NCBI GenBank assembly: GCA_013375475.1
Contig: JABXKD010000102.1
Location: 1 to 11,185, forward strand
Reading direction: 5' to 3'
Length of the DNA stretch: 11,185 bases
From: Promethearchaeota archaeon
GTDB taxonomy: Archaea; Asgardarchaeota; Lokiarchaeia; Sigyniarchaeales; SOKP01
The notes below the pieces were generated by a model. The model was not told where the DNA came from and did no database searches. It saw only the letters and a program-made list of their open reading frames with translations. Below are positions 3,104 through 11,185 of this stretch, one piece after another. The first letter of the stretch is position 1, and each line of letters opens with the position of its first letter. The position numbers were made by a program, and so were the translations under genes.

Positions 3104-4174
3104 ATGAAGATAAATTTTGCTAATAAATACGTAGTTTGGGTCGTATTATCCATAATTCTGATTTTAGGTTTTATACTTGGTATTTTCATATCTCTTCTTG
3201 CTTCAGATTTAAGTAGTATTATTCGATTTATCACAATCGTTTTTTTATTCATCGTTCAAGCCTATTTAATAGTAAAGTTTATCGGGACGAGATTAGAAAA
3301 CAAGCAGAAATTTGGCATTATATTATATCATTCGTTAAATTTACTGTTCACTGTCGTAATAGGATTTTCCATTCCGTTAATGGAATCTGATTTTAGAAAT
3401 AATACCGGGCTAGTAATGCTTCCAATGATTTTGATATTAGGGTTAATTATAACCGATAAATACGATAAAAATATTAAAAATATTACTTACGATCAAAACT
3501 TAGAAGAAAGTAAAACTCGCGATATCCCGGTTATTGAGTTTGAAGATAAAAAATACATATTCACCTTAAAATCGTTATTGCTATTTGCAATTGGAACACC
3601 TCTATTAGCTTTAGGAATATACCTATTTTTTAGTACCGAAGCACAATTTTGGTTGCACGAAATTGTAGTCAAACAAACCGTATATTTCCTCAATTTATTC
3701 TTTAATATGGATGTGTCTGCAAGTTATGCTCTTGGTGGCAATTATCATTGGAGTTTTGACTTTCTTGACGGCAACATCAACGGCGATCCGTTATCGAGTA
3801 TTTTCTTTGAGACCTTTTGTACGGGAATTCAAGCAATTTGTATTTTTGCGGGTATTATAATATGTACGCCCCATTCTAGAGACAAGAATACAAATAAAGA
3901 TATTATTTGGAGAAAGGCTAAAGCGCTAGTCGTTTCATCCGTCATATTCTACGTCGTAAATATCATTAGGATGTTAATTCAAATTGAATTATACTATCTC
4001 GGCTATCCATGGGATAGTATTCACGTATCTATCAGTGCCGCGAGCTCGTTTATTGCAGCTATAATCATTCTTTTGCTTCATAAGTGGATTCCCGAGTTCA
4101 TCATAAGTATCATTTATATTGGTACTTTGATTAGCAATAAGTTCAAAAAGCGAAAAAACCCAAAAGAAGAATAG
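3104..4174 (+). CDS. Archaeosortase/exosortase-family transpeptidase with an extra N-terminal 4-TM domain (archaeosortase H-like)
   Basis: Polytopic membrane protein with the exosortase Cys-Arg-His triad: FCTG (Cys239), NIIR (Arg289) and SIH (His307). About 120 aa of additional N-terminal TM helices precede the catalytic region. Confidence 0.85.
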   Translation: MKINFANKYVVWVVLSIILILGFILGIFISLLASDLSSIIRFITIVFLFIVQAYLIVKFIGTRLENKQKFGIILYHSLNLLFTVVIGFSIPLMESDFRNNTGLVMLPMILILGLIITDKYDKNIKNITYDQNLEESKTRDIPVIEFEDKKYIFTLKSLLLFAIGTPLLALGIYLFFSTEAQFWLHEIVVKQTVYFLNLFFNMDVSASYALGGNYHWSFDFLDGNINGDPLSSIFFETFCTGIQAICIFAGIIICTPHSRDKNTNKDIIWRKAKALVVSSVIFYVVNIIRMLIQIELYYLGYPWDSIHVSISAASSFIAAIIILLLHKWIPEFIISIIYIGTLISNKFKKRKNPKEE

Positions 4175-4219
4175 TAATGTTTTAATGATACTAATTGTTC
4201 ACCTAATCAAATTTTTTTA

Positions 4220-5131
4220 ATGATTAATATGCTAAATTTTGAAAAAGAGCAAAAAGTAGTAGATATTGGACCTATTCGCATGGGAGGTCAACCCGGAGAA
4301 AATCCCGTAGTGATGATTGCTACTGTTTTCTATACTAAACACGCTGCTTTATTAGACGAAAAAACGGGTAAAATAGATAAAAAACTCCTTGAACAAGAAT
4401 TACACGATTATTCAGAAGTCATCGAAGAAACTGGAATGCAAGGGATAATTGATGTAGTTGGAGCTTATCCCGATGCTCTATTGAAAGAATGTCAATTTGT
4501 AGCCGATATCGTCGATTATCCCTTCTTAGTTGATGGTCTTAACGATAGTTCGCGAATTCCAGCGATGGAAGGGTTAAAAGAAGTGGGGCTTTTGGACAGA
4601 GCTATTTTAAACAGCATAGACGAAGCTACTTCGGAAGACAGTTTGAATAGATTAAAAGAAATTGGAGTAAAATCCGCTGTTCTATTAACTTTTGGAAATA
4701 GGTATATATTTCCCCCCCAAAAAATACAATTTCTAAATGAAGTTCTAATCCCCAAAGCACAAAAAGCAAATATTGAAAATATGATTGTGGACACCGCAGT
4801 ATTAGATTTACCGTCTATTGGGATTAATGTTGAAACTACTCGATTGGTAAAATCTGAATTAGGATTACCTACCGGATTTGCTCCAGCTAATGCGATTTAT
4901 GGATGGGATTTCGTTAAAAAGTACGGTGATAAATCTAGATGTGGCGGAATTGCTTCATTAATGGCGTATTGTGTTAATGCTGGAAGCGATTTTGTGCTAT
5001 TTGGACCTATTAAATTTGCTAAATGTGTTATTCCTGCTATGGCTCTCATATCCGGAATAAATTCGTATTATCGTAAACGAATTCTAAGGAAAAAAATTTC
5101 GGATCGAACCCCATTGAAGCACATATTTTAA
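4220..5131 (+). CDS. mtrH: MtrH-family methyltransferase (tetrahydromethanopterin/tetrahydrofolate:corrinoid methyltransferase), stand-alone
   Basis: N-terminal FEKEQKVVDIGPIRMGGQPGENP...FY..H, then EVGLLDRAILNS, GLPTG..PAN...W, GSDFVLFGPI and a C-terminal PLKHIF, all matching MtrH/MtxH. The start is possibly ATG 4229. Confidence 0.88.
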   Translation: MINMLNFEKEQKVVDIGPIRMGGQPGENPVVMIATVFYTKHAALLDEKTGKIDKKLLEQELHDYSEVIEETGMQGIIDVVGAYPDALLKECQFVADIVDYPFLVDGLNDSSRIPAMEGLKEVGLLDRAILNSIDEATSEDSLNRLKEIGVKSAVLLTFGNRYIFPPQKIQFLNEVLIPKAQKANIENMIVDTAVLDLPSIGINVETTRLVKSELGLPTGFAPANAIYGWDFVKKYGDKSRCGGIASLMAYCVNAGSDFVLFGPIKFAKCVIPAMALISGINSYYRKRILRKKISDRTPLKHIF

Positions 5132-6651
5132 GAAATGTATCTGATCAGAAGATCTTGGGTACGTTTTAAGAATTCTTGTAGATTTTGATTAATTAGATCT
5201 TTCTTGTTTTCTTCATCTAATAGAAAAAGAACGTACATATCGTAATTTAACACGCGTATTTTTTTAAACAAAATAACTGAATCTGAAACTTTAAATGTCG
5301 CTTCATCTTTTTCTGTGGCTTTAAAATTAGCAAATATTTTAAATAACATAGTAAATTGAGGTGCCACGACTTCAAATACGTTCAATAAGTCCTCGGATTT
5401 TTCCATTTCAGTGATTTTCAAAGCCTTAGGTCTAAACGATTCTGCCAATACTAATCCGTCACTGCTAAGGAGGAGAATTAAAAAAGCACCTGTTGTCGTC
5501 GAAAATTCTTCAAGATTATGTTCAACTAAGTTCCTATTTGGACTGAGTTTAGCTACTCCCGAAGAAAAGGCTCTTAAAATAGAGAAGATCTCAAAAAGAC
5601 TCGTAATATAGATTTCAGGTGGGCCATCTTGAGATAATTTAGTTAATTTATTCGTTATGCTTTTTATGTTGCTTTTAATTTCTTTAGATTCAATTATATC
5701 AGAATCACCTTTTGATAATACATAAATAATTGGTGTATTCTGTTCTAAATCCGATAGCGCTTTTTTCATCTTATTAAGATATTCTAGGCTTTCTTCAAAG
5801 CGATCCCTATCTCTGATGTCTATAAAATAGAATAGTAAATCTGCTTCAAATAGATAAATTTGAGCTTTATTAAGATACTTTTCATGGTACTTCTTTTGTC
5901 CCCCTAAATCCCATAAAAAAATGGTTGCACCTAGCGCTTCTATTGAACTCACATCTGCACCTCTGGTCGGGCTTAGTCCAATCAACTTTGAGAATTTTCT
6001 GTCAACTGAAAGCAAAAAACTTGTTTTTCCACTATTATCCAAACCAGCGATCAAAATCTTCATTTTTCTCTGGGAAGATATCGGTGTGGAGGGCGTTTCT
6101 TCAATAGTGATAATTTTTTTTAAAAGTCCATTAAAATCTGACTCAACCTGTTCTTGTGGGGGAAATTCAGTAATCATTTTTTTATCAAATTCAGAAAAAA
6201 AATCTATTACAATGTTTTTAAGCCTATTTATGTTGTTATAGAGAAAACTTCTCCTCTTCTCGTCTATCAAAATACAGAAAGCGCTCGCTGTTGGGATTTC
6301 AGTTGATTCTATATCGATAAAGTGAAAGTAAGTAAGAGATGTTAGTTGAAGATCTGGAAAGGGAATAATTCCGAAGTATTGGTATTTTCTCAAAATCTCA
6401 ATTTCTTTGTTATATACAGCTCCGTCCCCTATTAAGAGAGATATATTTTTGATAGCTATCTGAATGTAATCCCTCAAAGAGATAGTAAGTATATTGTCAG
6501 CTTTATCCTCTGTTTTTTTAATTTCTAATTCCTCCATCTCTAAAGGAGGAGGAAACATGTAAATTGGTTGAGGACCTAGTGTATCGAAAGCGCAAAAGGC
6601 TAGTCCTTTGATGATTGAAGATTCAATTAATTTATTGAAATTTTTTTTCAA
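5128..6651 (-). CDS. Multidomain small GTPase: N-terminal longin/uDENN-like domain + Arf/Rag-like GTPase + C-terminal roadblock-like domain
   Basis: G1 GLDNSGKTS, G2 PTRG, G3 WDLGGQ, G4 SKGD, G5 TSLFE. The C-terminal LLLSSDGLVLAE is a roadblock signature, and the N-terminal AFCAFDTLGPQPIYMFP resembles uDENN/longin beta1-beta2. TTG start. Confidence 0.85.
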   Translation of the reverse strand: MKKNFNKLIESSIIKGLAFCAFDTLGPQPIYMFPPPLEMEELEIKKTEDKADNILTISLRDYIQIAIKNISLLIGDGAVYNKEIEILRKYQYFGIIPFPDLQLTSLTYFHFIDIESTEIPTASAFCILIDEKRRSFLYNNINRLKNIVIDFFSEFDKKMITEFPPQEQVESDFNGLLKKIITIEETPSTPISSQRKMKILIAGLDNSGKTSFLLSVDRKFSKLIGLSPTRGADVSSIEALGATIFLWDLGGQKKYHEKYLNKAQIYLFEADLLFYFIDIRDRDRFEESLEYLNKMKKALSDLEQNTPIIYVLSKGDSDIIESKEIKSNIKSITNKLTKLSQDGPPEIYITSLFEIFSILRAFSSGVAKLSPNRNLVEHNLEEFSTTTGAFLILLLSSDGLVLAESFRPKALKITEMEKSEDLLNVFEVVAPQFTMLFKIFANFKATEKDEATFKVSDSVILFKKIRVLNYDMYVLFLLDEENKKDLINQNLQEFLKRTQDLLIRYIS

Positions 6652-6699
6652 TAGTCTGGAGTTTCTTGTATATTATTTTCTAATAATAAAAGGTAGGAA

Positions 6700-6716
6700 A
6701 TTTAATTATATATAGC
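6700..6716. promoter_or_regulatory. Candidate TATA element(s) in the divergent intergenic region between the GTPase fusion and the AIR-synthase-like gene
   Basis: ATTTAATTATATATAGC lies about 20-33 nt upstream of ATG 6734. It is near-symmetric, so it could serve both directions in this 82-bp gap. Confidence 0.35.
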
Positions 6717-6733
6717 TTTATTCTAGAACATTA

Positions 6734-7693
6734 ATGCTAGAAAAAATTGCAGACTATATACGAACCAACAAAATTATTCTTGAAAAAGAAGAGCTTAATC
6801 CTATTGTCCGATTCATTAGCACAAACTCTTTTAAGAGTCCTCGTATCTTTTCCGACGTAGGACAAGATTCTGCTGCCATTGATAACAAGAGTGAAATGTA
6901 CACCTTGGTTACAACGGATAGGATTAAAACAAGCTACATTGAAAAATATCCTTTCGGTGCAGGATTTAGTTCTATCTTAGTTGGAGTTGATGATATTTTT
7001 GCTTGTGGAGGGACACCATTAGCTGCAACCATCATTATTTCCTTTAAAGAACAAAACATCGGCCAAAAAATGATTGAAGGGATTTGTAACGGTTCAAACA
7101 AGTTTAAAGTTCCTATAATTAGAGGTCATACTAATACAAAAGATTATTACGAGTTAAGCTCCACTTTAATTGGTGAAATTAAAAGGACAGATTATATTCC
7201 AGCAGATAACGCCCGAGAAAACGATAATATTATTTTAGCAGTAGATTTTGATGGTCAAATAGGGAGAGCTAGTAATCTACATTGGGACACAGTTACGCAC
7301 AAATCTTCTAAAGTCGTATTAAACAAAAGGTTAGCTATGAACATCATCGCTAAAGAACATCTTGTTAACTCTTCAAAAGACGTGTCAAACGGAGGGATTT
7401 TCGGTACAATTTTACAGCTGTTAAAATATTCTAATGTCGGAGCAGATATCAATGTTGAAAAGATCGTTATTCCTCCTAAACTAGTAGAAAAGGGTTATCA
7501 ACTAGAAACCTATGTTCAAATGTTTTTAACCACTTCTTATATTTTAACTGCACCAGAAAAAACATCTCAGGAAGTAATAAAGACTTTCAACAATCATGAC
7601 ATGTCAGCTGCTTTAATTGGAAGGATTAGAAATGAATCGGAATTAAATATTGCTGATAGTAAAGATTCAATGAAAGTTTTAGAATTTTTATGA
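6734..7693 (+). CDS. AIR synthase-related (PurM/ThiL superfamily) protein, methanogenesis marker 2 / sll0787-like
   Basis: Motifs GQDSAAI, TTD, GFSSILVGVDDIFACGGTPLA, IIRGHT and SSKDVSNGGIFGTI, which follow the PurM-like ATP-binding pattern of this subfamily. Confidence 0.82.
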   Translation: MLEKIADYIRTNKIILEKEELNPIVRFISTNSFKSPRIFSDVGQDSAAIDNKSEMYTLVTTDRIKTSYIEKYPFGAGFSSILVGVDDIFACGGTPLAATIIISFKEQNIGQKMIEGICNGSNKFKVPIIRGHTNTKDYYELSSTLIGEIKRTDYIPADNARENDNIILAVDFDGQIGRASNLHWDTVTHKSSKVVLNKRLAMNIIAKEHLVNSSKDVSNGGIFGTILQLLKYSNVGADINVEKIVIPPKLVEKGYQLETYVQMFLTTSYILTAPEKTSQEVIKTFNNHDMSAALIGRIRNESELNIADSKDSMKVLEFL

Positions 7694-7722
7694 TAAAGAG
7701 GACAAAAAAAAGTTGATATTTT

Positions 7723-8283
7723 ATGAATTTTGATTTTAAAAGAAACTTTAAGGGAACTATTTCTATTATTGGGACGAGCGAAATCGATTCTGCAACAAAA
7801 AAGCTAACAATTGAATTAGGACGATTATTAGCTAAAAATCATTTCGCAATTGTTTGTGGAGGTCTTTTTGGTGTTATGGAAGCTGTATGTAAAGGCGCGA
7901 AACAGGAAGGTGGCTTTACAATCGGAATAATACCTTTTGAAGATAAGAGTAAAGCAAACAAGTATATAGATGTTGTGATTCCAGTTCCTTTTTCTCAAGC
8001 TCGAAACATTATTGTCGTGCTAAGTGGTGATGCATGTATTGCCATAGAAGGAAAAGCAGGAACGTTATCTGAGATGTGTTTTGCTTGGATATATGGTAAA
8101 CCAATCATTGCATTAACTGGAGAAATCAATGGATGGTCGTCGAAGATGGCAGGAACCAAGATTGACGATAGGAGGAATGACATAATTTATGGTGCTAAAT
8201 CGGCTCAAGAAGCGGTTGAAAAACTAAATGAAATATTTAAAATTAACCCTAATATTACATACGATATGCCTACAGAGTTTTAA
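7723..8283 (+). CDS. LOG/SLOG-family Rossmann-fold protein (TIGR00725-like; putative nucleotide monophosphate phosphoribohydrolase)
   Basis: Motifs IVCGGLFGVMEAVCKGAK, TIGIIP, ARNIIVVLSGDA and GKAGTLSE. It begins 29 bp after the AIRS-like gene, so the two are probably co-transcribed. Confidence 0.9.
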   Translation: MNFDFKRNFKGTISIIGTSEIDSATKKLTIELGRLLAKNHFAIVCGGLFGVMEAVCKGAKQEGGFTIGIIPFEDKSKANKYIDVVIPVPFSQARNIIVVLSGDACIAIEGKAGTLSEMCFAWIYGKPIIALTGEINGWSSKMAGTKIDDRRNDIIYGAKSAQEAVEKLNEIFKINPNITYDMPTEF

Positions 8284-8320
8284 AAATTACGAAGCTTATT
8301 AATGGCTAATTATGTAAACT

Positions 8321-8350
8321 AATTTTTGGGGGAATATCCCTTTTAAAATT
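8321..8350 (+). terminator. Weak imperfect hairpin downstream of the LOG gene
   Basis: AATTTT-T-GG-GGGA-ATA-TCCC-TT-TT-AAAATT forms an imperfect stem with a T run after the GC core. Its function is not demonstrable from sequence. Confidence 0.25.
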
Positions 8351-8456
8351 AAAAAATTGCTAAAAGTTTTAATATTTAAGTGTGAGATAATTTTATAAGA
8401 ATGAGTGCAATATTATCTTACATAAGAATATATACAAAAATTACATTGTCTATTTC

Positions 8457-8462
8457 AAGGTG
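8457..8462 (+). promoter_or_regulatory. Putative Shine-Dalgarno (AAGGTG) for the GTPase at 8471
   Basis: AAGGTG ends 8 nt before the TTG start at 8471. Confidence 0.5.
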
Positions 8463-8470
8463 TAACTATT

Positions 8471-9439
8471 TTGGCAATTCAATTTTTAACTAAAGATGAG
8501 AAAGATAAGAAAAAGGTTGTCTCAGCATCGAAACTACTCTTTACAGGCTTAGACAACGCGGGAAAAACGACAATCATTTACGGAATACAACGCGAATTCT
8601 CTAAAATAGCTTTCCTAAAACCAACTCGTGGAGCCCAACGAAGAATTTTCGAGTTCATGGGAAGAGAGATTGCAGAATGGGATCTAGGAGGGCAAATCTC
8701 TTATCGAATTTCGTATTTGAAAAACCCAGGTAAATATTTCGACGACACAGAAATAGCTATTTATGTAATAGATATTCAGAATAAAGTAAGGTTACCTGAA
8801 GCAATAAGCTATTTAAAAGACGTCGTAGAGCAATTCAAAACACTTGAGATCGCTCCGCCTATTTACATATTTTTGCATAAATATGATCCTGCTTTAAGGC
8901 GAAATGCATTAAATGAAATGAAAAATCTCGAAGTAGAAATAAAAGAAAAAATAAAGCGCAATGTAGAATATAAACAAATCTTTTATTATAATACTAGCAT
9001 CTACGATCTCCCATCAATTATAAAAGCGATGTCAGAAATATTATTAAGCTTATATTCAAAATCAGAATTAATTGAAAAAACAATCATCGAATTTGGTAAG
9101 AAGACTTACTCTGATGGAATTGTTTTACTTGATGACAATTCTTTAATCATCGGAAGCTATTATAAGGATGATGAAACTAAGAATTTACTATCTGCAAGCA
9201 CTCCTTATTTTCTAACCCTTAATGATAGCTTTGTTTTTACCGAAGTCCAACCCAGTCGCAAGGAAGAAGACAATCACATGATTGTCCAAAGATTTGGAAG
9301 AAACTTCTTGTTTAAGCAACTGTCTTTAAAAGAAGGTATTAACCCTTATTATATTCTCATGCTCAAACAAGACACTCACATCAATAACGAAGATATAGCT
9401 TGTTTTTCAAACTTATTAAAAGAGATACTTTATAGCTAA
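8471..9439 (+). CDS. Rag-like/Arf-related small GTPase with a C-terminal roadblock-like domain
   Basis: G1 GLDNAGKTT, G2 PTRG, G3 WDLGGQ, G4 HKYD (8876-8887), G5 TSIYD (8993-9007). The C-terminal ~125 aa contains IVLLDDNSLIIGSY (roadblock beta hairpin). Confidence 0.88.
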   Translation: MAIQFLTKDEKDKKKVVSASKLLFTGLDNAGKTTIIYGIQREFSKIAFLKPTRGAQRRIFEFMGREIAEWDLGGQISYRISYLKNPGKYFDDTEIAIYVIDIQNKVRLPEAISYLKDVVEQFKTLEIAPPIYIFLHKYDPALRRNALNEMKNLEVEIKEKIKRNVEYKQIFYYNTSIYDLPSIIKAMSEILLSLYSKSELIEKTIIEFGKKTYSDGIVLLDDNSLIIGSYYKDDETKNLLSASTPYFLTLNDSFVFTEVQPSRKEEDNHMIVQRFGRNFLFKQLSLKEGINPYYILMLKQDTHINNEDIACFSNLLKEILYS

Positions 9440-9440
9440 C

Positions 9441-9466
9441 TCTTTTATTTTTTATATTTGTTTTTG
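9441..9466 (+). terminator. Oligo-T tract terminator candidate
   Basis: TCTTTTATTTTTTATATTTGTTTTTG immediately follows the stop of 8471-9439, typical of archaeal U-rich termination. Confidence 0.45.
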
Positions 9467-9508
9467 TCAATATTAATAAAATTGTATTTTGTTACTACTA
9501 TTATAGTT

Positions 9509-9522
9509 AAAGGGTTATAAAA
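9509..9522 (+). promoter_or_regulatory. Putative BRE + TATA promoter for the zinc-ribbon/roadblock gene
   Basis: Purine-rich AAAGGG is followed by TTATAAAA (9515-9522), about 44 nt upstream of ATG 9566. Confidence 0.5.
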
Positions 9523-9565
9523 GTAATATTTCTGATTTCAATAACTGATAGAAGAGATAAGTAAA

Positions 9566-10582
9566 ATGATTATTTGTTCCAACTGTGGGACCACAAACAA
9601 AGAAATGGATGGTCGCATCTGTAGAAAATGTGGTGCACTACTTCCCAGTTCCAATAAACCCCCAAGGATAAAAATCTCTCCCAAAAAAGCCGCAAAACCA
9701 CAATTCGATGAAAAGCGAGCACCACCTGAAAAAGAGAAACAAGTAGCTACTCCTCAAAGAAAAGAACCGAAAAAAAAACCTGATACTAAACCAAAAATTT
9801 TAGATCTTCACGAAATTCCTAAACCTGAAAATAAAGTCAAGGAAGGATTATTAGAGGATGAAATAGAAAGTGAGTTTAGCGACCTTGATGATGAAAATAA
9901 TAAGAAATTTCTGCAAGAGATCACACCACAACCTTTTAGAGGTTCAATTATTGCAGATAAAAGCGTTTATGGTAGTTCTAAGCACGTTAAGCTCTCAACG
10001 GGTTCAAAATCTCAATCTTCTAAAAGTACCTCTACCTCATCCCGCCAAATAGAATCTACTCTCTTAAAACAGAAGCAATTAGAAGATGATATGACAAAGG
10101 TACTTTCATTTCTTTCAAAAAAGATTACTGTAAAACCACTGGAAACGATTCAAAAAGAAGAAAAAATTAAATATAAACCTGTAAAAGCCATACCCCCTTC
10201 AAGTATGAGCGAAATTCTAAAAGATCTTCTGAAATTGGATTTACATATCGAAGCCTCTGCTATTATTAAGAATGATGGTACAATCCTAGCTTCTGCGATT
10301 AGTTCGAGGATATCAGATTCTCTCTTTGCTACGATCGGTCAGAATTTATCAATGATTGGCAACGATATAATTGAAGGATTAAGTGCTGGAACACTATTGA
10401 ACATATCTATTAGAGGAACTAATGGAGTATTAGATCTTGCTCCTATTGGCTCAAAAGAGACTTTAGGAAATGATATGATTTTAATTATCCTTTCACACCC
10501 TAAAGTGAAAAGTGGAATAATTCATTTTGCTGTATCTATTGTAAAAAAACAAGTAACTCAATACTTGGGATTATCAAAATAG
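9566..10582 (+). CDS. N-terminal zinc ribbon + low-complexity linker + C-terminal Roadblock/LC7 (MglB-like) domain protein
   Basis: CSNCG-x10-ICRKCG zinc ribbon, followed by a K/P/E- and Ser-rich linker of about 185 aa. The C-terminal ILKDLLKLDLHIEASAIIKNDGTILASA...GTLLNISIRGTNGVLDL...LIIL matches the roadblock pattern. Confidence 0.87.
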   Translation: MIICSNCGTTNKEMDGRICRKCGALLPSSNKPPRIKISPKKAAKPQFDEKRAPPEKEKQVATPQRKEPKKKPDTKPKILDLHEIPKPENKVKEGLLEDEIESEFSDLDDENNKKFLQEITPQPFRGSIIADKSVYGSSKHVKLSTGSKSQSSKSTSTSSRQIESTLLKQKQLEDDMTKVLSFLSKKITVKPLETIQKEEKIKYKPVKAIPPSSMSEILKDLLKLDLHIEASAIIKNDGTILASAISSRISDSLFATIGQNLSMIGNDIIEGLSAGTLLNISIRGTNGVLDLAPIGSKETLGNDMILIILSHPKVKSGIIHFAVSIVKKQVTQYLGLSK

Positions 10583-10599
10583 AATATCACGCTTGGATT

Positions 10600-11185
10600 T
10601 TAGAGTAATTGTTTTTGAACAACTAATTTTGAGACTTTTTCTATTTTAAAATATTGCAAGTTAATCATTAGCTCTTGTAAAAACGAATTTAGATTATTTA
10701 TTCCCACTAGGGGGACAGAATTATCATTAATTTTAATCCAATTAGTTTCTAATGTCACCATAATTGGAATTAGCGTAAAAGGTAGTCTTATACGGATTTT
10801 GAAGTTCATTCCTAACAGTTTTTGTATTAAATCTGAAAGCGTTTCAGGATTTTTTTTTAAAGCGACGACTCTTTGATATTGCAAATTAGCGGCTTTATTC
10901 ATTGCGTCGTAAGAATCTTTCCTTTTCCATTGTTTAGCATCTATTATGAGGATATAATTTTGATAAATACCTATAACATCAATTTCATATCGTTTTTGAG
11001 ATGTTTCGTATTTCAAATTCGATCTATCTGAGAATCTAAAATTTTTAATTGTTCTATAATTGTTTTGAGATAAAATCTCTTGAATTAGAGCTTCAAATCC
11101 GTCGTAATTTAATAAAAGAGATAACTGGCTAACATCTAACTCTAAAAATTGTATACACTTAGTAATAAAAATGATTTTATCTATT
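10600..11185 (-). CDS. PD-(D/E)xK nuclease, Mrr-like/NERD-like restriction-endonuclease fold; 5' end outside the window
   Basis: The frame stays open upstream of TTG 11016 to the window edge: ...LLLNYDGFEALIQEILSQNNYRTIKNFRFSDRSNLKYETSQKRYEIDVIGIYQNYILIIDAKQWK. This gives the FE helix, EIDV and IDAK catalytic motifs. Confidence 0.8.
   Translation of the reverse strand, partial: IDKIIFITKCIQFLELDVSQLSLLLNYDGFEALIQEILSQNNYRTIKNFRFSDRSNLKYETSQKRYEIDVIGIYQNYILIIDAKQWKRKDSYDAMNKAANLQYQRVVALKKNPETLSDLIQKLLGMNFKIRIRLPFTLIPIMVTLETNWIKINDNSVPLVGINNLNSFLQELMINLQYFKIEKVSKLVVQKQLL

Follow-up and report, generated by a model that had tools for sequence, protein, structure and literature searches.

A longin domain lacking the arginine finger, fused to a Rag-like GTPase in an Asgard archaeon, and its arginine-bearing paralogue

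Rag GTPases are clients of FLCN and GATOR1. The longin domains of eukaryotic GAP complexes come in pairs, namely C9orf72:SMCR8, FNIP2:FLCN, yeast Lst4:Lst7 and NPRL3:NPRL2, and a GP motif at the turn between strands beta1 and beta2 marks this class. According to the accessible text of PMC12290439, this motif is specific to GAP-type longins, being absent from those of DENND, TRAPP and adaptin, and it neighbours the arginine finger within a pocket to which two symmetric longins contribute. The catalytic arginines, Arg164 of FLCN and Arg147 of SMCR8, are in the longin beta4-beta5 loop, and C9orf72 by itself and the isolated SMCR8 longin both lack GAP activity (accessible part of bioRxiv 10.1101/2020.04.16.045708). 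In Asgard genomes, the domain order longin-GTPase-roadblock has been published from AlphaFold2 models and asCOG analysis (PMC10933270 and bioRxiv 10.1101/2020.10.19.343400, as far as their text is accessible), and PMC12290439, in the same limited sense, asks which Asgard GTPases pair with GP/arginine-finger longins. Here we describe a protein of this kind, LGR1, encoded in an 11,185-nt stretch of DNA (the window) from a Promethearchaeota archaeon, and compare it with a second Rag-like GTPase of the window, the 8471 GTPase, and with its paralogue LGR2 from the same genome.

Domains of LGR1

The LGR1 gene occupies 5128..6651 on the minus strand, including the stop codon, and starts with TTG; the open reading frame list and its translation give a protein of 507 aa with a longin domain, a Rag-like G domain and a roadblock domain. 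The longin domain, residues 1-190 (6082..6651, minus strand), is supported by AlphaFold2 (AF2), VIA-align and Foldseek, the Rag/Gtr-like G domain at about residues 196-370 (5542..6066, minus strand) by Pfam PF04670 and PF00025, and the C-terminal roadblock-type domain at about residues 371-507 (5131..5541, minus strand; the boundary is approximate) by alignments to Gtr1 chains. The segment 6064-6651 on the minus strand, for which the original prediction had proposed a longin domain fused in cis to a Rag-like GTPase, corresponds to residues 1-196. That fusion was confirmed, with Gtr1_RagA (Pfam PF04670) matching residues 198-402 at 75.9 bits (cut-off 22), and no Pfam DENN model was found after the longin, these residues being the Gtr1/RagA G domain instead.

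The G domain has the P-loop GLDNSGKT, the switch II motif DLGGQ and the G4 motif SKGD, and G203..G208-K209, D248-x-x-G251-Q252 and K314-x-D316 are invariant. Among PDB sequences, LGR1 matches 8yl2_A (E 1.2e-29) as well as RagA and Gtr1, and in phmmer its residues 191/198-491 align to residues 2/5-302 of the Gtr1 chains 4arz_A, 6jwp_A and 3r7w_A (307-312 residues). By these sequence matches, LGR1 has a Gtr1/RagA-like G domain plus C-terminal roadblock domain. In NCBIfam, nothing beyond the generic small_GTP domain was matched, with a score under the cut-off, and within the window neither a tRNA nor an Rfam family was found. With residues 1-195 as query, 178 proteins matched at E <= 0.001, and PF04670 or Arf-family PF00025 is present in all 120 matches listed of these 178, most of which have 497-511 aa. 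Because of these 178 homologues and the invariant residues, the longin-GTPase fusion is not due to chance.

AF2, with a 46-row alignment as input, modelled residues 1-195 with pLDDT 88.3 and pTM 0.87. The elements E14-23, E26-33, H59-74, E91-98, E103-112, E121-130, H131-159 and H166-185 follow the order beta-beta-alpha-beta-beta-beta-alpha-alpha, which is the longin order with five strands. The elements named in the original prediction, i.e. the helix DYIQIAIKNISLL, the strands YFGIIPFP, LTSLTYFHFID and ASAFCILID and the final helix RSFLYNNINRLKNIVIDFF, are all AF2 elements of the predicted kind, and the longin fold predicted from them was obtained rather than another fold. In VIA-align, the top match was the Lokiarchaeota longin 8yqg_B (Z 16.5, rmsd 2.5, 145 aligned), followed by longins of GAP complexes, C9orf72 (7o2w_A, Z 12.9), Lst4 (4zy8_C, 12.6), FLCN (6nzd_H, 11.6), a GATOR1 chain and SMCR8 (8fw5_C and 6lt0_B, both 10.6) and FNIP2 (6ulg_N, 10.4), and by TRAPP, VAMP7, DENND1A, adaptin, Sec22 and Mon1 at Z of about 7.5-10, where rows within 1 Z are ties and GAP-class and other longins differ by about 1-3 Z. 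Sixteen chains had Z >= 8, and every one of these entries contains longin-domain proteins. Foldseek gave 5 matches at E <= 0.001, all of them 8yqg (2e-6) or Lst4 (5.5e-4). Judged from the model, the N-terminus of LGR1 is a longin fold, and structurally it belongs to the FLCN/Lst4/NPRL/C9orf72-SMCR8 class.

Folliculin, NPR2, DENN or longin hits had been expected from structure and profile searches. The structural part of this expectation was borne out by the longin matches of Foldseek and VIA-align, the latter including FLCN, but Folliculin PF11704, NPR2 PF06218 and uDENN PF03456 were found in 0/29 LGR1 N-termini at E <= 10, and the LGR1 N-terminus had no Pfam match of any kind at that level. 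An ESM Atlas feature search with residues 1-190 gave a best score of 0.84, short of 0.9, the level below which this search offers leads at most. Against the same residues, an Asgard cluster of the Atlas with NPR2 on 19% of its members reached 0.79.

The GP motif and the beta4-beta5 loop

Residues 14-35 of LGR1, IKGLAFCAFDTLGPQPIYMFPP, contain F22-x3-G26-P27-x6-P34 and fit the pattern F-x(3-4)-GP-x(4-6)-P given in the original prediction. The GP motif itself, G26-P27 (6571..6576, minus strand), is located at the beta1-beta2 turn, flanked by strands E14-23 and E26-33 in the AF2 model, and it is invariant in 46/46 aligned sequences, together with P34, K68, P97, P99 and D100. It is also present in 41/41 LGR1 plus LGR2 N-termini, and 91/94 cluster representatives from the wider family have it.

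The beta4-beta5 loop, the arginine-finger position of GAP longins, is formed in LGR1 by residues 113-120 (DIESTEIP; 6292..6315, minus strand) and contains no arginine and no other basic residue; a conserved arginine in this loop is absent in 68/68 LGR1 orthologues. Because the arginine position of FLCN and SMCR8 lacks a conserved arginine throughout these orthologues, the LGR1 longin, as far as sequence can tell, is probably not a GAP module in its own right, and LGR1 would therefore match at most the non-catalytic partner. Against such a non-GAP reading, a basic residue located elsewhere or an arginine-free GAP mechanism could still be invoked. The original prediction had taken the LGR1 longin as an FLCN/NPRL2-type GAP module, with either the fused G domain as its target in cis or the 8471 GTPase in trans. 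This agrees with the class of the fold and the presence of GP, and the cis fusion and a second Rag-like GTPase in the conserved neighbourhood would suit it; however, the catalytic loop has no conserved arginine in any of the 68 orthologues, the Folliculin, NPR2 and uDENN profiles are unmatched, and in eukaryotic complexes the arginine-less partner alone is inactive (accessible part of bioRxiv 10.1101/2020.04.16.045708). We thus retain the class but consider the GAP-module reading of LGR1 itself highly improbable.

A missing arginine would also suit a longin that binds a G domain (that of LGR1, of LGR2 or of the 8471 GTPase) in the way Mon1-Ccz1, TRAPP, DENN and SRX do, and that serves nucleotide exchange or readout of the GTP state and not hydrolysis. 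Structural similarity to such longins is present (TRAPP Z 10.0, DENND1A 9.0, Mon1/Ccz1 8.0 and 7.3, the SRP-receptor complex chain 6frk_y 7.4), but the best eukaryotic matches are GAP-complex longins, DENND, TRAPP and adaptin longins are reported to lack the GP motif (accessible text of PMC12290439), and the nearest paralogue, LGR2, has the GAP signature. For a DENN-type domain in particular, the DENND1A longin scores below the GAP class, and neither uDENN nor DENN of Pfam is matched. A GEF-like or effector role appears improbable to us.

The paralogue LGR2, the conserved neighbourhood and a modelled longin pair

LGR2 is encoded outside the window in the same genome (contig C62 of G000); it has 470 aa, the same architecture as LGR1 and about 35% identity to it. 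In contrast to LGR1, it has A-R-G in the beta4-beta5 loop, invariant in 16/16 LGR2 sequences, and in its AF2 model R91 lies in the loop between strands E76-86 and E94-104. Alignment of the two families by hhalign (probability 99.8%) puts the A-R-G of LGR2 opposite the LGR1 loop. Pfam Folliculin PF11704 matches 12/12 LGR2 N-termini (best E 4.6e-6), the LGR2 of our genome reaching 18.6 bits, under the cut-off of 23.3. The best eukaryotic structural matches of the LGR2 longin are Lst4 (Z 13.0) and FLCN (Z 12.7), and 8yqg has Z 18.1. Searching all PDB sequences with the LGR2 longin profile gave 0 matches at E <= 10; therefore the link of LGR2 to FLCN and Lst4 rests on structure, PF11704 and motifs. 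In a tree of 70 longin domains, the arginine-bearing longin-Ras and roadblock-longin groups are outside the LGR1+LGR2 group, itself weakly supported (88/63); this suggests that LGR1 has lost the loop arginine.

The 8471 GTPase (Rag322; 8471..9439, plus strand) has 322 aa with a G domain plus roadblock, and matches Gtr1_RagA of Pfam at 85.9 bits. Its residues 11-319 match PDB chain 8yl2_A with E 4.7e-84, an entry titled as the homo-tetrameric RagA-like GTPase LokiRagO, and by this sequence match the 8471 GTPase is an orthologue of the solved LokiRagO. A separate open reading frame for an orthologue of this GTPase was found in 37/46 LGR1-centred loci having about 6 kb upstream. Adjoining it, in a conserved arrangement, is a gene (9566..10582, plus strand) for a zinc ribbon, a low-complexity linker and a probable roadblock, whose Pfam matches (Zn_ribbon_3 7.6e-4, Robl_LC7 0.0069) are both weak and below cut-off, and whose match to the MK-D1 roadblock 7yh1_D is likewise weak (E 0.011). 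This gene is present in 29/68 LGR1-centred and 8/12 LGR2-centred loci. The recurrent order in the loci compared is LGR2, NERD, Zn-ribbon-roadblock, Rag322, SLOG, AIRS, LGR1, and in relatives LGR2 adjoins the same conserved cluster. LGR1 and LGR2 do not share an operon, LGR1 being divergent from AIRS-SLOG-Rag322, and LGR2 being set apart by the convergent NERD gene.

Co-occurrence was determined in a GTDB-based sample of 151 genomes from the phylum, in which LGR1 and LGR2 are confined to two families (f1 and f2) of the window's own order. These families account for 33 genomes, counting our own: both genes occur in 28 of them, LGR2 alone in 3, LGR1 alone in 1 and neither in 1. The two genes are on one contig in 19 of the 28 genomes, 5.6-19.5 kb apart, and in family f2 they are on different contigs in 3/3 genomes. 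The genomes with a single gene are G048 and G121 (99% complete), G097 (93%) and G109 (85%), of which G109 has LGR1 without a detected LGR2. The labels given by submitters to LGR1 homologues (Thor-, Heimdall-, Hod-, Odin- and Hermodarchaeota) differ from this GTDB-based sample.

In complex models, the LGR1 longin (residues 1-190) with the LGR2 longin (residues 1-160) reached ipSAE 0.70 (runs 0.69, 0.70, 0.73) versus 0.01 for the best of 3 controls, using a tool that also passes near relatives of a true partner and may pass lookalikes of solved longin dimers by having memorised them. The mark applied was passed by 116/157 solved complexes and 2/215 mismatched pairs, a benchmark that is rough here, where our own alignments were used. 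At least 83% of the contacts were common to the runs, with partner pLDDT of at least 80. The model covers the longin domains only; the full-length pair (977 residues) could pass via the roadblock domains alone. The modelled interface consists of LGR1 residues 92-100, 68-79 and 131-142 facing LGR2 residues 65-73, 39-54 and 105-115, and its predicted edge in LGR1 is strand beta3 with the P-F-P-D turn, residues 91-100 (6352..6381, minus strand; interface core 92-100). F93, P97, P99 and D100 are invariant across LGR1 and LGR2, and the interface residues are nearly identical in the paralogues (YFGI[IL]PFPD; I.[IM]K..SLL.GD). Since these residues are common to both, an LGR1 homodimer would probably score as well as the LGR1:LGR2 model.

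Two readings thus have to be weighed at this interface. In the one we favour, with a confidence slightly short of even, the LGR1 longin would be the non-catalytic half of an FNIP2/C9orf72-like pair, with LGR2 as the most likely partner. Devoid of the arginine finger, it would most likely not activate GTP hydrolysis by itself, and it would dimerise through strand beta3 and helix alpha1, where the invariant YFGIIPFPD and IKN.SLL..D surfaces lie, most likely with the longin of the syntenic LGR2, which has both GP and A-R-G. One catalytic and one non-catalytic longin would then form a single pocket, as in C9orf72:SMCR8, FNIP2:FLCN and NPRL3:NPRL2, and this pocket would have as its substrate one of the assembly's Rag-like G domains, be it in LGR1, LGR2 or the 8471 GTPase. 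What was observed, in silico, comprises fold, motifs, missing arginine, paralogue, synteny, co-occurrence and modelled interface; the choice of LGR2 over LGR1 itself as the partner, the GAP activity of the pair and the identity of the client G domain are inferred.

A homodimeric scaffold is a somewhat unlikely alternative, in which LGR1 would pair with itself via the beta3/alpha1 longin edge, and probably via the roadblock too, with no need for LGR2 and no GAP chemistry; the longin would be a platform for dimerisation or docking, or would lock its own G domain intramolecularly. With interface residues conserved between LGR1 and LGR2, self-pairing would meet no greater steric obstacle, and the PDB title of 8yqg, the nearest relative with a solved structure, reads 'dimeric structure of the longin domain'. 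Moreover, Rag-like architectures of MK-D1 were modelled as homodimers by Tran et al. 2024 (PMC10933270, accessible text), 8yl2, the solved orthologue of the neighbouring GTPase, is titled homo-tetrameric, and G109 has LGR1 with LGR2 undetected, in a genome 85% complete. However, a scaffold leaves unexplained why GP, otherwise tied to the catalytic pocket, is invariant in an arginine-less domain, and why 28/33 f1/f2 genomes hold an arginine-bearing paralogue besides LGR1, less than 20 kb away in 19 of them.

Extending the LGR1:LGR2 pairing, one could regard the two proteins as a self-contained forerunner, made of two polypeptides, of the Rag/FLCN-FNIP (or GATOR1) module of eukaryotes, a proposal that we hold as speculative and rather unlikely. 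In it, paired roadblocks at one end and the asymmetric longin pair at the other would clasp two Rag-like G domains. GAP and client would thus be built into a single heterodimer, whose unequal longins would force the two G domains into opposite nucleotide states, as happens in RagA:RagC. The LokiRagO-type GTPase would be a further client, and the zinc-ribbon-roadblock protein a Ragulator-like anchor.

Comparison with known systems

LGR1 has the domain order of the longin-GTPase-roadblock protein of Prometheoarchaeum MK-D1 (PMC10933270; bioRxiv 10.1101/2020.10.19.343400, accessible text). The GP/arginine-finger class, the split into arginine-bearing and arginine-less longins and the conserved cluster were not found in the accessible main text of these two sources. 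The Rosetta-stone fusion put forward in the original prediction is a sound idea but not a new one: longin-Rag fusions and an FLCN/NPRL2-like class of Asgard longins are already published, and what is gained here is a sharper hypothesis, not a new system. Longin-Ras fusions with the same longin class exist too. The closest solved structure to LGR1 is 8yqg, a Lokiarchaeota roadblock-longin protein with 20% identity from the same Asgard longin superfamily; unlike LGR1, its family has the roadblock in front, no G domain and the loop arginine kept. Proteins of this type found by profile search are about 285 aa long, their longin lying at residues about 110-260, and 10/10 of those in the tree have the R-G loop motif. 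A limited literature search found no paper describing 8yqg, 8yl2, 8zla or 9m28, which are cited here by PDB title.

RagA/B-RagC/D and Gtr1-Gtr2 share with LGR1 the G domain plus C-terminal roadblock, PF04670 scoring above cut-off and the alignments to RagA and Gtr1 chains spanning both domains, whereas LGR1 has an additional N-terminal longin and SKGD as its G4 motif. With GP longins covalently joined to Rag-like G domains, Rag-type GTPases are likely clients of such longins in at least one Lokiarchaeial order.

Compared with the longin pairs of eukaryotic GAP complexes, LGR1 is alike in fold (Z 10.4-12.9) and in having GP at the beta1-beta2 turn, but it has no match to them at the sequence level, while LGR2 matches Pfam Folliculin weakly. 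In contrast to FLCN, FNIP, SMCR8 and C9orf72, the longins of LGR1 and LGR2 are followed by no DENN domain and run straight into a Rag-like G domain with roadblock. If LGR1 and LGR2 do pair, the asymmetry of longins would predate eukaryotes and would be open to testing in soluble prokaryotic proteins about 500 aa long. The presence of the arginine in LGR2 and its absence in LGR1 resemble SMCR8, FLCN and NPRL2 versus C9orf72, FNIP2 and NPRL3, and this split mirrors the catalytic and non-catalytic subunits of the folliculin, GATOR1 and C9orf72-SMCR8 complexes. The closest distribution of motifs is that of C9orf72:SMCR8, where, according to the accessible text of PMC12290439, GP is in both longins and the arginine in one.

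Longin fold of the LGR1 N-terminus

The minus-strand ORF at 5128–6651 (ORF list and translation), within a window of 32–38% G+C, encodes LGR1, a protein of 507 aa, and the region in which the original prediction had placed a FLCN/NPRL2-type longin domain fused to a Rag-like GTPase corresponds to the first 196 codons of this ORF. Pfam locates a Gtr1/RagA G domain at residues 198–402 (75.9 bits, cut-off 22) and has no match to residues 1–195. The top PDB sequence matches in phmmer were two Asgard 'GTP-binding proteins', 8yl2_A (E 1.2e-29) and 8zla_A, followed by Arl3, RagA and Gtr1, and the Gtr1 alignments span residue 191 or 198 to 491, i.e. the G domain plus a C-terminal roadblock domain. Thus, the order in LGR1 is a Pfam-blank N-terminal domain, a Rag-like G domain and a roadblock domain. 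Used as a query, residues 1–195 matched 178 proteins at E <= 0.001; among the best 120, which were listed, most are 497–511 aa long, and PF04670 or the Arf-family PF00025 is present in 120/120.

To model the N-terminus with AlphaFold2, its sequence was aligned with 45 of the 120 listed homologues, the remaining ones being close relatives. The model (pLDDT 88.3, pTM 0.87) has the element order beta-beta-alpha-beta-beta-beta-alpha-alpha, and each strand or helix named in the original prediction coincides with a predicted element of the same kind. In Foldseek, five PDB chains passed E <= 0.001: two from 8yqg, a longin domain taken from a Lokiarchaeota roadblock-longin protein, and three from the Kluyveromyces lactis Lst4 longin; GATOR1, FLCN-FNIP2 and C9orf72-SMCR8 chains came next. 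In VIA-align against 48,161 representative chains, 8yqg_B was closest (Z 16.5), followed by 7o2w_A of a C9orf72-SMCR8 entry (12.9), Lst4 (12.6), 6nzd_H of a folliculin complex (11.6), 8fw5_C of GATOR1 (10.6), 6lt0_B (10.6) and 6ulg_N (10.4); TRAPP (10.0), VAMP7 (9.6), DENND1A (9.0) and other longins (∼7.5–9) scored lower, and roadblock domains reached 6–7. The longin fold holds by model and both structural searches, whereas the narrower FLCN/NPRL2-type assignment is favoured by scores whose margin is just 1–3 Z units. As modelled, the LGR1 N-terminus belongs to the folliculin/C9orf72 structural class of longins and bears a GP motif.

[quoted passage not shown]

PMC12290439 places the GP motif immediately ahead of strand beta2, adjoining the arginine finger, and finds both features in some Asgard longins that stand alone. 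The LGR1 counterpart, G26-P27, lies exactly at the beta1-beta2 turn and is invariant in the alignments. According to bioRxiv 10.1101/2020.04.16.045708, FLCN and SMCR8 carry their arginine fingers (Arg164 and Arg147, respectively) in the loop joining longin strands beta4 and beta5. The corresponding loop of LGR1 is DIESTEIP (residues 113–120), and a conserved arginine is absent from it in 68/68 orthologues taken from 80 fetched loci. What the original prediction observed is confirmed and its interpretation is partly supported: the FLCN-like reading stands as regards structural class and GP motif, but a catalytic GAP role is unlikely, the LGR1 longin not being equipped as a catalytic GAP subunit.

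Loci fetched with the LGR1 alignment also contain a paralogue, LGR2, with ∼35% identity to LGR1, the same three domains (longin, Rag-like G domain, roadblock) and ∼470 aa. The window's own genome has a single copy of 470 aa on another contig (G000:C62, locus L082 435–1847, plus strand), and examples in relatives are L001 1–420 (minus strand) and L055 5995–7407. The LGR2 beta4-beta5 loop reads D-x-x-A-R-G-x-A-[KR] in 16/16, with GP kept too, and R91 lies between strands 76–86 and 94–104 of an AlphaFold2 model (pLDDT 83.6, 12-row alignment). The two families match in hhalign at 99.8% probability, with the LGR2 A-R-G opposite the Arg-less LGR1 loop. The best structural matches of the LGR2 longin were 8yqg (18.1), Lst4 (13.0), FLCN (12.7) and C9orf72 (12.4). 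Pfam Folliculin (PF11704) matched 12/12 LGR2 N-termini weakly (best E 4.6e-6), the own-genome copy at 18.6 bits, under the 23.3 cut-off, and 0/29 LGR1 N-termini.

A profile of LGR1 and LGR2 N-termini, searched against 1.84 billion cluster representatives, retrieved just 139 proteins at E <= 0.001. Pfam scans of 46 of them gave longin-Rag-roadblock proteins (∼460–520 aa), longin-Rag proteins with an N-terminal extension (536–682 aa), longin-Ras/Rab-like proteins (∼335–360 aa), one TrmB fusion, and ∼285-aa proteins with no Pfam match whose longin occupies residues ∼110–260, as in 8yqg. Both motif regions could be aligned in 94 representatives, of which 91 have GP and 55 the loop R-G. The 430–529 aa class comprises nine proteins with R-G (462–518 aa; eight LGR2-like and the TrmB fusion) and ten LGR1-like proteins without it (479–512 aa). 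Five longer longin-Rag proteins (P0140, P0145, P0148, P0152 and P0161; 536–682 aa) carry an insert after the GP-bearing beta1-beta2 hairpin, which splits the longin into two matched stretches in HMMER, and are without the R-G motif.

A tree of 70 domains (both motif regions aligned, at least 120 residues) supports LGR2 (98/97) and an inner LGR1 clade (99/96). Arg-bearing longin-Ras and roadblock-longin groups, the latter with R-G in 10/10, fall outside an LGR1+LGR2 group that is weakly supported (88/63). This topology, rooted by midpoint only, suggests that LGR1 lost the arginine following duplication. Two further genes of this longin class occur in the own genome (G000:C220:26713–27114, minus; G000:C252:2418–2858, plus), in ORFs of ∼350–362 aa, the size of the longin-Ras/Rab-like fusions among the cluster representatives; between one and three genes of this kind are present in most family f1 genomes.

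Gene neighbourhood and co-occurrence

The order archaeosortase H, MtrH-like methyltransferase, LGR1, AIR-synthase-like, SLOG/TIGR00725, 322-aa Rag-like GTPase, zinc-ribbon-roadblock, NERD, LGR2 is deeply conserved, down to ∼42% LGR1 identity (window 3104–11184 and loci L001–L080). In 68 LGR1-centred loci we counted the AIR-synthase-like gene (methanogenesis-marker-2-like, match under cut-off) in 65, the MtrH-like gene in 56, archaeosortase H in 54, SLOG/TIGR00725 in 51, the separate 322-aa GTPase in 43 (37 of the 46 loci having ∼6 kb upstream), zinc-ribbon-roadblock in 29 and NERD in 24. LGR2 follows directly past NERD in the three LGR1-centred loci long enough to reach there, and is missing from the window because the window stops within NERD. 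In LGR2-centred loci, NERD adjoins LGR2 in 11/12 and the 322-aa GTPase is also visible in 7/12. We found no functional link of the GTPases to their metabolic neighbours in this cluster.

LGR1 and the AIR-synthase-like gene are divergent with a gap of just 82 bases (6652–6733), so that the promoter region may be common to both. The 322-aa GTPase (8471–9439, plus strand) is an orthologue of PDB 8yl2 (E 4.7e-84), by its title the homo-tetrameric RagA-like GTPase LokiRagO, and, compared locus by locus, is better conserved than LGR1 (e.g. 85% vs 70% identity in L006). L006 (DATKTW010000091.1), titled 'Candidatus Nanopelagicaceae bacterium', carries the whole Asgard cluster at 65–85% protein identity to the window, and is probably mis-binned or mislabelled.

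Among 151 sampled genomes across the phylum (completeness >= 80%), orthologues of LGR1 (E <= 1e-25) and LGR2 (>140 bits) were restricted to families f1 and f2. Counting the own genome, 33 genomes belong to f1 or f2, of which 28 have both genes, three LGR2 only, one LGR1 only and one neither; the pair shares a contig in 19/28, separated by 5.6–19.5 kb.

Modelled longin pair and known systems

We modelled LGR1 1–190 with LGR2 1–160, each with its own alignment. The ipSAE was 0.70 (runs 0.69, 0.70 and 0.73), compared with 0.01 for the best of three controls; the mark is attained by 116/157 solved complexes and 2/215 mismatched pairs, counts that are only rough here because alignments were self-made. 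The runs have at least 83% of contacts in common, with a partner pLDDT no lower than 80. The modelled interface pairs beta3 with beta3 antiparallel (LGR1 92–100 with LGR2 65–73), together with alpha1 and the start of alpha2, and uses the segments invariant in both families (YFGI[IL]PFPD). Antiparallel beta3-beta3 pairing with alpha1 is the usual longin/roadblock dimer geometry, so the ipSAE pass may reflect resemblance to dimers already solved, and a homodimer might do equally well. Pairing of LGR1 with LGR2 is the most economical reading: the LGR1 longin would supply the second, non-catalytic half, and the LGR2 longin would donate the arginine.

The longin-GTPase-roadblock order in Asgard archaea is prior art from Liu et al. 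and Tran et al. Asgard longins with GP and arginine finger are described in PMC12290439, which poses their GTPase partners as a question and whose main text lacks the word 'fused'. Our literature search returned no account of fused longins as Arg-bearing and Arg-less paralogues and no description of the LGR1/LGR2 cluster, and supplements of the cited papers may bear on both. The proposal is a testable refinement of a known kind of longin-Rag fusion, not a new kind of system. Its likeness is to C9orf72:SMCR8, in which, as reported in bioRxiv 10.1101/2020.04.16.045708, neither longin is active alone; the proposed LGR1:LGR2 pair would likewise join a non-catalytic longin to an Arg-bearing one.
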